From Escherichia phage EC121: 64,000 nt of DNA. Below, piece by piece: positions 35,806-38,939 of this stretch. The position numbers and the translations under genes are program-made. The stretch lies in sequence record NC_054909.1. One strand, 5' to 3'. Under the pieces are notes generated by a model that had not been told where the DNA came from, searched no databases, and saw only the letters and a program-made list of their open reading frames with translations. Numbering within the stretch: position 1 is the first letter of the stretch; each line of letters starts with the position of its first letter.

Positions 35806-36081
35806 TTATTTCATATTATTGAAATATTCTTCTGCGATTTCGTCGTTATCATGGTAAACTTTAGAAGACAATTTAACATAACCTTCAGCAGTGAACATGT
35901 TAATCACAACCTTTACAGTATACCACTGACCGTCTTCATTGCCCATTACCGCATAAGTTTCAAACATCGGATGATCAGGACCGATAACTTTAATATCATT
36001 CACTGTACGACCGAAATCTTCTGAAACACATTTCATAAAGAAGTTGAACAGTTCGCCGTAATTATCCATTTCGTTCTCCAA
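35806..36081 (-). CDS. hypothetical acidic protein (91 aa)
   Basis: ORF downstream of promoter 36113..36141. Confidence 0.55.
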   Translation of the reverse strand: MENEMDNYGELFNFFMKCVSEDFGRTVNDIKVIGPDHPMFETYAVMGNEDGQWYTVKVVINMFTAEGYVKLSSKVYHDNDEIAEEYFNNMK

Positions 36082-36141: not shown

Positions 36142-36273
36142 CAGTTTTGTGAAAAAATTTTTAAAAAGTTTTGGGGAATTCTAGGGCAGGGAGGGGAAAT
36201 CAAAGGATAGGATAATATATTATAAAGGGTAGAAACTAAATGATGTCTAGAGAGGCCTGGAAAGGCCTAGATA

Positions 36274-36303
36274 CCAAAAAGCCCCAACCTTTCGGCTGGG
36301 GCT
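36274..36303 (-). terminator. intrinsic terminator downstream of 36311..36784 gene
   Basis: hairpin AGCCCCAACC..GGCTGGGGCT followed by TTTTTGG on minus strand. Confidence 0.55.
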
Positions 36304-36310
36304 AAGAATG

Positions 36311-36784
36311 TTATTTGATTTGTTTAGCAGACCAAATGCGGTCTTTAATAATTTTTTGGATGTCTTCAACATACCCAAGAGAGTGAGCATGTGGGTTATC
36401 TTTGAAACTATAAGCACGAGCCAGTTTTTGGCCTTCAGTTTTGATTACTAAAAGCTCTTTAAGAATAGCTTCATATTTGGAGATAATTCCTTTAACAATA
36501 TTTTTCTCTTGTGCGACTTTAGGATCTGCTTTAGGAGCAGGTTTACCTGAAGCCTTTGCAAAAGCAGCGCCAGTAGCAACTAAACTTTTCCAGGCCATAC
36601 TAACTGCATTTCCCGTAAATCCTTCCGCTTTCATGTCGCGTGCGAACTGGAATCGCGATTCATCAGAAGCATCTTTGTAAGAATATTTACCCGCTGCAAT
36701 GGCTGCTTTTGCGACAGCTTGAATTTCGGTGCTAGATGCTTCATTTAACACCGCTTCATTTAAAAATTGAGTATATGATTTCAT
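36311..36784 (-). CDS. putative capsid-targeted internal protein (157 aa)
   Basis: N-terminus MKSYTQFLNE resembles capsid targeting sequence with LxE cleavage motif; own late promoter. Confidence 0.6.
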   Translation of the reverse strand: MKSYTQFLNEAVLNEASSTEIQAVAKAAIAAGKYSYKDASDESRFQFARDMKAEGFTGNAVSMAWKSLVATGAAFAKASGKPAPKADPKVAQEKNIVKGIISKYEAILKELLVIKTEGQKLARAYSFKDNPHAHSLGYVEDIQKIIKDRIWSAKQIK

Positions 36785-36824
36785 CTTATTTCCTGTTTTA
36801 ATTCGTGGTTTTAATATACTACTA

Positions 36825-36832
36825 TATTTATA
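36825..36832 (-). promoter_or_regulatory. late promoter box TATAAATA
   Basis: plus-strand TATTTATA about 40 nt upstream of ATG at 36784. Confidence 0.45.
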
Positions 36833-36862
36833 CCAAAAAGCCCCAACCTTTCAGTCGGGGCT
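36833..36862 (-). terminator. intrinsic terminator, near-identical copy of 36274..36303
   Basis: hairpin GCCCCAACC..GTCGGGGC followed by TTTTTGG on minus strand. Confidence 0.55.
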
Positions 36863-37169
36863 AAGCCTTGCGGCAACCTTGTCGGGGTTCCACCTGCTAA
36901 GGCAAGTGTTTGTACGAAACGCCGGGATTCGAACCCGGTTATTAAGCAGTTGACGCTACTCAATATTTTTAAAAGGCCATATCTCGACCATATCCGAACG
37001 TTCCGTCAAAAACGCTACTCGGTTTACGGCAAAGATATTTCCTCGAATCGATAATTCGGTGCGCCGTTTCTGCTGTGATAGTAAAGAGCCAGAACACAGT
37101 AAAACTGTGGGAGGAAACTATACTCCAGGGAACATCAGTCCGACGACTTACCGGTAGCGACCCGGTTTC

Positions 37170-37520
37170 TTAGTATTCTTTTAAAGCATCAACCTGTTCA
37201 CGACGTTTACGCCATAAATCAATTACTTCATACGCAGATTCAGCATTTCGAATTGGACGGCATTTATATAAAGACTTGTGATTTTGATATTGTGTAGATA
37301 ACGGAATTTTATCTAAAAGGTCTTTACGTTCAAAATATTCGTAACCATCTAAACCAAATGAACGATTTTTGAGAAATTGCCAATGACCAAATTCGTTTTC
37401 GACATAAACATAATCTGCATGCTGATAAAGCAAATTAATTACACGTTCAGAAATAACAGTATCATTATGATTAAAATAGAATGTTAAATCATGAACTACT
37501 AAATAAACATTACCTTTCAT
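37170..37520 (-). CDS. hypothetical protein (116 aa) inside tRNA region
   Basis: ATG 18 nt downstream of tRNA-Arg with GAGG RBS. Confidence 0.55.
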   Translation of the reverse strand: MKGNVYLVVHDLTFYFNHNDTVISERVINLLYQHADYVYVENEFGHWQFLKNRSFGLDGYEYFERKDLLDKIPLSTQYQNHKSLYKCRPIRNAESAYEVIDLWRKRREQVDALKEY

Positions 37521-37538
37521 ATTTTCCTCACTTATAAT

Positions 37539-37614
37539 TGGTCGAGGCAGTAGGGATCGAACCTACGACCCAGGACTTAGAAGGTCCTTGCTCTTCCTTC
37601 TGAGCTATGCCCCG
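37539..37614 (-). tRNA. tRNA-Arg (anticodon TCT), CCA encoded
   Basis: manual cloverleaf: acceptor CGGGGCA/TGCCTCG, anticodon loop CTTCTAA, T-arm GTAGG-TTCGATC-CCTAC. Confidence 0.75.
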
Positions 37615-37618
37615 TAAT

Positions 37619-37694
37619 TGGGGTGACCGATGGGAGTCGAACCCATGACTACGAGAATCACAATCTCGAGTTCTACCAACTGAACTACGGCCAC
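37619..37694 (-). tRNA. tRNA-His (anticodon GTG), CCA encoded, no encoded G-1
   Basis: acceptor GTGGCCG/CGGTCAC, discriminator C, anticodon stem CGAGA/TCTCG loop TTGTGAT. Confidence 0.65.
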
Positions 37695-37808
37695 ATTAAT
37701 ACCTACTCCAACAATCATGATGTCTTCACACGAAATTAAGAGAAGAGTGATCAGTTCAACCCCTATAATCGCGTCAAGTAGATATTAATGTGACAGTTGT
37801 CACAAATT

Positions 37809-37883
37809 TGGCGGACGTGATAGGATTCGAACCTATAACCAATCGCTTAACAGGCGATCGCTCTGCCATTGAGCTACACATCC
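37809..37883 (-). tRNA. tRNA-Asn (anticodon GTT), CCA encoded
   Basis: acceptor GGATGTG/CACGTCC, anticodon loop CTGTTAA, T-loop TTCGAAT. Confidence 0.7.
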
Positions 37884-37887
37884 AAAT

Positions 37888-37974
37888 TGGTGGGGAGTGA
37901 TGGAGTCGAACCACCCGAGTCGCAATGACAATGAATTTACAGTCCACACCGCTACCTCTACGGGATAACTCCCC
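37888..37974 (-). tRNA. tRNA-Tyr (anticodon GTA), long variable arm, CCA encoded
   Basis: acceptor GGGGAGT/ACTCCCC, anticodon loop CTGTAAA, 87 nt type II. Confidence 0.6.
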
Positions 37975-37981
37975 CTTAATT

Positions 37982-38056
37982 TGGTGGCCCTGGGTGGAAT
38001 TGAACCACCATCTGGCGATTATGAGTCGCTTGCTTGAACCTTCCAGCTACAGGGCC
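37982..38056 (-). tRNA. tRNA with CAT anticodon (Ile-lysidine type or Met), CCA encoded
   Basis: acceptor GGCCCTG/CAGGGCC, anticodon arm CGACTCATAATCGC as in Ile2-type tRNAs. Confidence 0.7.
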
Positions 38057-38057
38057 T

Positions 38058-38133
38058 TGGTGCTGATTGACGGAATCGAACCGCCGACATCCTCATTACA
38101 AGTGAGGTGCTCTACCTACTGAGCTAAATCAGC
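38058..38133 (-). tRNA. tRNA-Thr (anticodon TGT), CCA encoded
   Basis: acceptor GCTGATT/AATCAGC, anticodon stem CCTCA/TGAGG loop CTTGTAA. Confidence 0.75.
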
Positions 38134-38138
38134 AAAAC

Positions 38139-38228
38139 TGGCGGAGGCGATAGGATTTGAACCTATGAGTCGCCGGAGCGACTGCCGGTTTTCAAGACCG
38201 GTGCATTAAACCACTCTGCCACGCCTCC
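38139..38228 (-). tRNA. tRNA-Ser (anticodon TGA), long variable arm, CCA encoded
   Basis: acceptor GGAGGCG/CGCCTCC, anticodon stem CCGGT/ACCGG loop CTTGAAA, 90 nt. Confidence 0.75.
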
Positions 38229-38230
38229 AG

Positions 38231-38304
38231 TCTCCATACAAGGATTTGAACCTACGACATTCTGCTCCCAAAGCAGACGCTCTACCAAACTGAGCTACAC
38301 GGAG
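38231..38304 (-). tRNA. tRNA-Pro (anticodon TGG), no encoded CCA, 2 nt from tRNA-Ser
   Basis: anticodon stem TCTGC/GCAGA loop TTTGGGA; acceptor CTCCGTG/TATGGAG with wobble pairs. Confidence 0.65.
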
Positions 38305-38314
38305 TAAATTAAAT

Positions 38315-38388
<74 letters not shown>

Positions 38389-38393
38389 AAATT

Positions 38394-38480
38394 TGGTGCG
38401 AGAAGTGGGACTCGAACCCACAAGGAAATAATTCCGCAGCATTTTAAGTGCTGTGCCTTTACCAATTTGACCATTCTCGC
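38394..38480 (-). tRNA. tRNA-Leu (anticodon TAA), long variable arm, CCA encoded
   Basis: acceptor GCGAGAA/TTCTCGC, anticodon stem CAGCA/TGCTG loop CTTAAAA. Confidence 0.75.
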
Positions 38481-38481
38481 G

Positions 38482-38554
38482 CTGGGAATAAAGGACTCGA
38501 ACCTTTGCATCTAGCAGTCAAAGTGCTATGCCTTACCAACTTGGCTAATTCCCA
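38482..38554 (-). tRNA. tRNA-Gln (anticodon TTG), no encoded CCA, 1 nt from tRNA-Leu
   Basis: acceptor TGGGAAT/ATTCCCA, anticodon stem TAGCA/TGCTA loop CTTTGAC. Confidence 0.7.
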
Positions 38555-38651
38555 ATTATTAACAAAGGCTCTCTAACAAGAACCCTTGATGATAGAGGGT
38601 ATTAATCAGTGCGGTATGAGTTAATAATAACAAATAATTCTTAAAGCATAT

Positions 38652-38939
38652 TTACCATTTATGATAATACATATTTACGATGCATTCAAGGCCCAAAGGA
38701 TTCTTGAAAATATCATATTCAAGAGGACCTTTTTCTGTTTCAATAAAGAAATCAAAATTTACTGTATTAAATTTACGGTCTTCCTTCACTAATTTAACTT
38801 GAGAAGATGAACGGTCAACATAAACCTTTTCAACTTCAAAACATGTTAAAACGCCATAATCATCAATCAAGGCTTTAGCTGCTTCTTGATCATATTTATA
38901 TCCATTTTCAATGGATGATACTTTCGCATAAAGAATCAT
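38652..38939 (-). CDS. hypothetical protein (95 aa)
   Basis: ORF in variable ipI-locus. Confidence 0.5.
   Translation of the reverse strand: MILYAKVSSIENGYKYDQEAAKALIDDYGVLTCFEVEKVYVDRSSSQVKLVKEDRKFNTVNFDFFIETEKGPLEYDIFKNPLGLECIVNMYYHKW

Follow-up and report, generated by a model that had tools for sequence, protein, structure and literature searches.

Bacteriophage T4 carries, at the end of its transfer RNA (tRNA) operon, two small stable RNAs that have been known since the 1970s, i.e. rnaC ('species 1 RNA', 70908–71046 in record NC_000866) and rnaD ('species 2 RNA', 71053–71171). The T4 tRNA cluster is expressed as one primary transcript of ∼1.75 kilobases (kb), which stops behind the species I gene and from which the eight tRNAs and the two small RNAs are processed (PMC2330249). 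T4 RNAC has been detected by Northern blot, and both RNAC and RNAD accumulate late, the tRNAs early (PMC9697503). Here we analyse a stretch of 64,000 nucleotides (nt) of Escherichia phage EC121 (NC_054909.1; hereafter the window), in which an earlier note had pointed to ∼300 nt of non-coding DNA with a tRNA-like T-arm and had guessed that they hold a counterpart of the T4 small stable RNAs. The guess was a good one: this interval very probably contains the phage's orthologues of T4 rnaD and rnaC, followed by a structured trailer and the tRNA-operon terminator. It is a correct rediscovery of RNAs that were already known.

rnaC and rnaD are annotated on the homologous stretch in phages RB59, Kha5h, T4 (NC_000866) and T2L (AJ880101). 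Alignment of the RNA strand with T4, RB59 and Kha5h is near-perfect over rnaC and both ends of rnaD, and we transferred the boundaries from the T4 annotation by pairwise alignment. The window copy of rnaC differs from that of T4 by three substitutions and shares with it the strand, the position at the end of the tRNA operon, the trailer, the terminator and the predicted structure. All features of the rnaC/rnaD region are on the minus strand. ARAGORN places 11 tRNA genes at 37539–38554 on this strand, in agreement with an Rfam search, and the interval lies downstream of this cluster, as the earlier note had it. rnaC is followed by the trailer and terminator and stands upstream of e.8, which matches the T4-type arrangement. 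A covariance search points the same way: a model (R1) built solely from 21 homologues outside Tequatrovirus and Mosigvirus has a single match in the window, at 36913–37051 on the minus strand, over its full length (model positions 1–140; 130.8 bits, E = 1.6e-30). The interval is indeed non-coding, with mechanical open reading frames (ORFs) of 32–50 amino acids (aa) only, but it is not the single element that had been described: it comprises two RNAs and a trailer, and ∼4 nt of rnaD lie beyond its proposed end, reaching ∼37173.

The records differ slightly on where rnaC begins and ends. The T4 record gives 139 nt, from U1 to ...GUA, while the T2L record sets the ends at 37050 and 36911 (140 nt, from C2 to ...GUACA), so that the true ends are uncertain by 1–2 nt. 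The ends of the T2L record would give a 7-position stem with a 4-nt 3′ overhang, which is exact tRNA geometry.

We then compared 38 distinct rnaC homologues (alignment A5) from a phage collection, viral contigs and metagenomes. They represent at least nine genera (Tequatro-, Mosig-, Karam-, Kanagawa-, Moon-, Winkler-, Gelderland- and Marfavirus, and unclassified Straboviridae). RNAalifold was run on the first 31 sequences and pairs were counted on a structure-blind MAFFT alignment of all 38; nucleotide n of rnaC corresponds to window coordinate 37052 − n. RNAalifold predicts (i) a terminal stem of nt 2–4 and 7–8 with 131–132 and 135–137, (ii) a composite arm (nt 9–78), (iii) a hairpin (nt 87–112) and (iv) a T-arm (nt 114–130), with compensatory changes in 26 of the 43 predicted pairs. 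Among the 38 sequences, 96.1% of cells pair, compared with 38–49% when partners are slid by 1–3 columns, and 28 of 48 pairs have changed on both sides. Of 500 shuffles, none equalled the real alignment on four of the five measures, and two did on the fifth. Folded alone, the window rnaC adopts the same structure as its minimum free energy fold (−50.2 kcal/mol, z = −3.97, none of 200 shuffles as good).

The T-arm, CCGGG–UUCGAAU–CCCGG, is present exactly where the earlier note saw it, at 36922–36938 on the minus strand; the 17-mer CCGGGTTCGAATCCCGG has a single match in the 64 kb even when two mismatches are allowed, and none in 100 shuffles. The middle pair of its stem is G-C in 19 homologues, U-A in 17, A-U in one and U-G in one. 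The accompanying statement that no acceptor stem matches this arm was mistaken, because a 7-position stem (37050–37044 with 36921–36915) joins the two ends of rnaC and abuts the T-arm. Its pair 4–135 switches between A-U (17 homologues) and G-C (21), and its two mismatches, U5.U134 and U6.U133, are invariant. Between the 5′ strand of this stem and the variable-arm hairpin, the composite arm (70 nt; helices 9–11/76–78, 15–18/69–72, 23–27/60–64, 30–34/54–58 and 38–42/49–53) replaces the D-arm and anticodon arm.

These comparisons show that rnaC is a non-decoding, tRNA-shaped RNA, i.e. the acceptor/T-arm half of a tRNA and not a tRNA, because its terminal stem covaries and abuts the T-arm and a rival internal stem (see below) does not covary. 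The two elements adjoin without a spacer, in the fashion of a tRNA, and a T-arm with a GGUUCGAAUCC-type loop next to an end-to-end stem of seven positions is tRNA-like, the two U.U mismatches notwithstanding. The genomic context is similar. The rnaC of Karamvirus and Gelderlandvirus is placed like another tRNA gene, with tRNA-Trp on one side, tRNA-Gly on the other and spacers of 5–6 nt, and in other genera the unit directly upstream of rnaC is also a tRNA, ending in CCA. The 3′ tail reads U-ACA-A in the window and U-CCA-A, with the NCCA of tRNAs, in five Marfavirus sequences. Edwardsiella phages PEi26 and PEi20 have a plain hairpin (AAUGCCUA...UAGGCAUU) before rnaC, with neither a tRNA nor rnaD at that place. 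The 5′ end of rnaC must therefore be made independently of an upstream tRNA there, which fits recognition of its own terminal stem.

A second feature of rnaC concerns two hexaloops, UUGACG at the tip of the composite arm and CGUCAA in hairpin 87–112, which are fully complementary in all 38 sequences. The chance of full complementarity of two given hexaloops is P = 0.00024, and the duplex would be worth about −5.5 kcal/mol. The UUGACG loop is invariant outside Marfavirus, and it is kept on stems that differ wholly by lineage (CGUUU/AAACG, GUAG/CUGC, GCAU/AUGC and CACGU/ACGUG). In the five Marfavirus sequences (Klebsiella) both loops shift together to UUGGCG and CGCCAA, so that A46-U99 becomes G-C. 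The hexaloops thus probably pair as a kissing interaction, either within one molecule or between two. We also observed a 9-nt direct repeat, GAGUAGCGU, at 37012–37020 and 36953–36961 on the minus strand (nt 32–40 and 91–99). Each copy leads into one hexaloop hairpin, which hints at an internal duplication in Tequatro- and Karam-type sequences.

The second RNA, rnaD, has a narrower distribution and a different mode of variation. Its homologues (21 distinct sequences, alignment A4) come exclusively from Tequatro- or Mosigvirus. Their flanks (5′ 47 nt and 3′ 21 nt) are 95–96% conserved, whereas the centre has a mean pairwise identity of 63% (minimum 27%); rnaC in the same loci is 97.8–99.3% identical to the window copy. 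Five unrelated centre types yield one architecture, i.e. a 5′ hairpin and a long stem-loop. Compensatory changes occur in the helix that closes the variable part, and the closing pair of the 5′ hairpin changes from A-U to G-C in five sequences (one compensatory pair). The centre in the window is unrelated to that of T4 and belongs to the T2L type. T4 rnaD directly follows tRNA-Arg, while rnaD of the window, as in T2L, is separated from it by an ORF of 351 nt; T2L and the window share both the centre type and the layout after trna.2, and the 6-nt spacer before rnaC is common to T4, T2L and the window. Conserved ends combined with a hypervariable apex between near-identical phages suggest a host-specific interaction of rnaD. 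We considered whether rnaD could be a degenerate tRNA, given its 3′ ...CACC(A) end and the presence of a real tRNA in that slot elsewhere, and rejected this: its ends have no acceptor-type pairing and it folds as a hairpin and a long stem-loop. A terminator-like site on the plus strand (37150–37166) is simply the rnaD 5′ hairpin read in antisense, with a T-rich run behind it, and no plus-strand gene ends there.

rnaC is present in ∼760–810 phage records, all of them Tevenvirinae of Enterobacterales. With the VPA32, PEi26, Marfavirus and Melville forms as queries, neither lineages beyond this group nor a second independent event of loop covariation came to light. A structure-anchored motif scan of the genomes of ∼186,000 species found no cellular homologue, only two chance matches in coding sequences without a T-arm, and BLAST against 5,426 complete E. 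coli genomes was likewise negative. None of the 4,227 families of Rfam 15 matches 36700–37300 at the gathering threshold, and matches at E ≤ 10 are at chance level. In Dhakavirus-like phages (dhabil, UP19 and MN01) the matches are confined to both extremities of the 336-nt query (∼34% coverage), an indication that the bulk of rnaC/rnaD is absent from them or has been replaced. The RNAs may therefore be dispensable in some lineages.

By analogy with T4, a single long precursor transcribed from the minus strand would carry the 11 tRNAs and, at its 3′ end, both RNAs. Host RNases would then release the two as separate, stable molecules whose levels rise late in infection. Presumably RNase III and RNase P take part in this maturation, and we take the AAUUA of the spacer to be the RNase E cut site of a dimeric rnaD–rnaC precursor. 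We found no late promoter preceding rnaD, whether in T4, in T2L or in the window, where the sole perfect TATAAATA within 36200–38800 lies downstream of the terminator. Greater RNA stability is hence the simpler explanation for late accumulation. The acceptor/T-arm module could make rnaC a ligand of proteins that recognize this half of a tRNA, e.g. processing, end-repair or modification enzymes or tRNA-targeting defence toxins, and without an anticodon rnaC would act as a mimic or decoy instead of decoding. We put forward the idea that rnaC is a non-decoding tRNA mimic or decoy as a tentative model only. A fuller version is rather improbable as a whole: rnaC would be a tRNA mimic, shaped or dimerized by six-base-pair (bp) kissing loops, that serves as a decoy or sponge for host factors acting on the acceptor/T-arm half of tRNAs, either in attack or in processing, e.g. 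toxins of defence systems directed at tRNA ends, and the rnaD hairpin would be a second, host-strain-specific determinant of counter-defence. The only genetic lead on function concerns rnaD: all lines of the T4-like phage BW-1 that were adapted to host ECOR34 acquired the same single nucleotide polymorphism (SNP) within it, and the virulence index went up from 0.17 to 0.98 (PMC12685909). Should the fuller version hold, the species 1 and 2 RNAs, familiar for 50 years, would turn out to be anti-defence factors made of RNA and conserved among the T-even phages of enterobacteria. In any case, the structure of rnaC turns the long-standing question of what these abundant late RNAs do into concrete, testable features, i.e. 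the acceptor-like stem with U.U mismatches, the covarying hexaloops, the CCA of Marfavirus, the rnaD centre and the convergent rnaD SNP.

Several points weigh against this interpretation. For rnaC, (i) ACA rather than CCA is encoded at the 3′ tail in most genera; (ii) the T-loop is non-canonical (UGCAUGC or UGCAUUC) in the MY742 type and in Kc304, with the T-stem kept, and since these loops are tolerated a canonical T-loop is not strictly required; (iii) the loop–loop covariation represents one clade and one evolutionary event, and fits an intramolecular contact as well as a dimer; and (iv) the hexaloops could be conserved instead as elements read by a protein. For rnaD, (i) the outer helix GUCGUCG/CGGCG-CAC does not vary and therefore gives no covariation signal; (ii) the fold of the window sequence is no more stable than those of its shuffles (z = −0.28); (iii) the 5′ end must be produced in another way than in T4, given the intervening 351-nt ORF; and (iv) the T2L record labels rnaD as 'putative; predicted by 5′- and 3′-end homology'. 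That phage EC121 produces the two RNAs is likewise a prediction from homology. Finally, no function is assigned to rnaC or rnaD in PMC3014915 (2010), PMC9697503 (2022) or PMC12685909 (2025), so that the decoy mechanism is drawn from shape alone.

Two other explanations of what the RNAs do deserve consideration, each of them improbable in our judgement. One is that they are regulatory RNAs that base-pair with phage or host messenger RNAs. 'Small regulatory RNAs' is the wording of PMC9697503, and both the fast-evolving apical hairpin of rnaD and the effect of the rnaD SNP on host-specific virulence (PMC12685909) would agree with an antisense role. However, the best antisense complementarity in the 64-kb window scores 22.3 bits against shuffle means of 23–24 (short seed pairings would escape BLAST), the 5,426 E. 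coli genomes gave no match, and rnaC is almost wholly base-paired, with its conserved unpaired hexamers complementary to each other.

The other explanation, to which we give similarly little credence, is that rnaC and rnaD are functionless by-products, either decayed tRNA genes or a structured spacer or 3′ untranslated region that survives processing and perhaps shields the operon from 3′ exonucleases. We take the T4 tRNA region to be dispensable in laboratory hosts. That it is not essential (PMC2330249), that no function has been found since the 1970s, that Dhakavirus-like phages match the ends of the interval only and that rnaD has a weak thermodynamic signal would all suit such remnants. 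Against this, 28 compensatory pairs are kept across at least nine genera and the loops, mismatches and linker residues are invariant, which indicates purifying selection on rnaC. Its position inside the tRNA array of Karamvirus and Gelderlandvirus means that it is not simply a 3′ protective cap, and the convergent adaptive SNP in rnaD also speaks against a by-product (PMC12685909).

That the interval holds a twelfth, unusual tRNA (for Lys, Met, Phe or Sec, interrupted by an intron or bearing a long extra arm) is very unlikely, although several annotations and programs say so. The G4507 record has a 94-nt tRNA-Lys(ttt) on the homologous spot, phage 55 a 'tRNA-Lys' and G9062 a 'tRNA-OTHER'; ARAGORN calls tRNA-Met(cat) in homologous locus L017 (8491–8585) and tRNA-Phe(gaa) in L057 (7816–7911); and cmscan gives a weak tRNA-Sec match via an internal 8-bp stem, ACGGAACG/CGUUUCGU. 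The anticodon thus varies with the caller, and the tRNA-Sec match has 16.6 bits against a threshold of 47 bits (E = 2). The internal acceptor stem (nt 46–53 with 131–138), which we infer to underlie the tRNA-Lys/Met/Phe calls, shows no compensatory change and has one pair broken in 12 of 31 sequences, whereas the terminal stem covaries; the supposed anticodon loop is a variable single-stranded linker of the supported structure. We rejected both a twelfth tRNA and tRNA-Sec on these grounds, and the tRNA-Lys/Met/Phe annotations of rnaC are artefacts. The conclusion that this is not a twelfth tRNA had been reached before from the wrong acceptor-stem argument; it stands independently of it, as there is neither an ARAGORN call in the window at this place nor a match to RF00005. 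Small proteins are almost certainly not encoded here, despite the 1–4 hypothetical-protein coding sequences that many records place over the homologous stretch: the mechanical ORFs are short, overlapping on both strands and unconserved, homologues (138–142 nt) differ by single-base indels, and substitutions track base-pair covariation and not codon structure.

Reading the interval as rnaD and rnaC has a practical side. Many GenBank records leave the two RNAs blank or cover them with such hypothetical proteins. Hundreds of T4-like genomes are thus mis- or unannotated here, with no Rfam family, and a covariation-supported model would fix the annotation.

We also examined the neighbourhood of the two RNAs (Table 1). 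A 1-kb probe spanning the interval matched 908 phage records, and its top matches (99–99.8%) are the Escherichia Tequatrovirus phages ECP52, KMB23 and G4507. Since Tequatrovirus records are the best matches, the window is identified from its sequence as a T4-like phage (Tequatrovirus), with a tRNA region of the T2L type. The gene order, i.e. tRNA-Arg, the 116-aa ORF, rnaD and rnaC, is the same as in T2L and unlike that of T4. The T2L record (AJ880101) has the identical order, and its trna.2 coding sequence overlaps the start of rnaD; similarly, the stop codon of the 116-aa ORF (37172–37170) overlaps the inferred rnaD 5′ end. Primers #24 and #25 of PMC2330249, which were designed for the T2L trna.2 ORF, match both ends of the 116-aa ORF. 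T4 has no trna.2-type ORF at that spot and carries the homing endonuclease segB upstream of tRNA-Arg instead. Within the tRNA cluster, neither ARAGORN nor Rfam (at E ≤ 1) recognizes anything in the 114-nt gap between tRNA-His and tRNA-Asn (37695–37808).

Downstream of rnaC, the trailer fold has z = −3.0. The further G+C-rich hairpins mentioned in the earlier note are accounted for by the three small hairpins and the terminator (36862–36839, minus strand) of this trailer, together with the rnaD 5′ hairpin (37166–37150). Unlike at the rnaC locus of T4, the terminator in the window is followed by an additional ORF of 157 aa. This ORF is preceded by a perfect T4 late-promoter box, TATAAATA, at 36832–36825 and is flanked by two near-identical intrinsic terminators (36862–36839 and 36303–36280, minus strand). 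The arrangement resembles that of a cassette acquired through recombination between duplicate terminators.

Table 1. Features of the rnaC/rnaD region in the window of phage EC121 (rnaC nucleotides numbered as in the text)
Feature	Position	Strand	Evidence or remark
rnaC (species 1 RNA) homologue, 139 nt	36913..37051	-	136/139 identical to T4 rnaC
rnaC terminal (acceptor-like) stem, 5′ strand, nt 2–8, CGAUUCG	37044..37050	-	pairs with 36915–36921
rnaC terminal stem, 3′ strand, nt 131–137, CGUUUCG	36915..36921	-	tail U-A(-C-A-A) next, 36914–36910
rnaC composite arm, nt 9–78	36974..37043	-	RNAalifold and pair counts; compensatory changes in most pairs
Apical hexaloop UUGACG, nt 43–48	37004..37009	-	tip of composite arm
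rnaC hairpin, nt 87–112, 10-bp stem, class II variable-arm position	36940..36965	-	9/10 pairs compensatory
Hexaloop CGUCAA of hairpin 87–112	36950–36955	-	complementary to UUGACG loop
T-arm, nt 114–130, CCGGG UUCGAAU CCCGG	36922..36938	-	unique in window
Spacer between rnaD and rnaC, 6 nt, GAAUUA	37052..37057	-	sequence and T4 annotation
rnaD (species 2 RNA) homologue, ∼116 nt	37058..∼37173	-	alignment with T4 and T2L rnaD; 5′ end inferred by homology only
rnaD hypervariable centre, ∼49 nt, apical half of long stem-loop	37079..37127	-	identity comparison
rnaD 5′ hairpin, ACCGG / 7-nt loop GUCGCUA / CCGGU	37150..37166	-	RNAalifold and single-sequence fold
3′ trailer: three small hairpins, then intrinsic terminator (stem 36862–36839, U-tract)	36834..36912	-	terminator scan
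116-aa ORF (351 nt) between tRNA-Arg and rnaD	37170–37520	-	T2L trna.2 homologue, phrog_3355, function unknown
157-aa ORF	36784–36311	-	phrog_2280, function unknown, absent from T4
e.8 homologue	35806–36081		phrog_2678

Beyond its T-even counterparts, rnaC can be compared with several tRNA-related RNAs. With a class II tRNA it shares a 7-position stem directly next to a T-arm (5-bp stem, UUCGAAU loop), a hairpin 1 nt before this arm, an embedding in tRNA arrays with tRNA-like spacing and, in Marfavirus, the NCCA tail. It differs from one by having no D-arm, anticodon arm or conserved anticodon, by its length of 139 nt and its two U.U mismatches, and by failing tRNA models. Transfer-messenger RNA (tmRNA) also builds an acceptor stem and T-arm from both ends of a longer RNA whose interior is occupied by other structure. 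However, rnaC is ∼2.5 times shorter than tmRNA and, by our own reading of the sequence, has no tag reading frame, pseudoknot set or G.U at the third acceptor pair; ARAGORN reports no tmRNA in the window and Rfam gives no match. YrlA, a bacterial Y-RNA-like RNA, and the tRNA-like structures of plant viruses likewise present a tRNA-shaped module without decoding, in a size and topology unlike those of rnaC. Large structured RNAs associated with phages assemble through loop–loop contacts, and rnaC resembles them, as a matter of likeness only, in its association with phage tRNA genes and its possible kissing loops.

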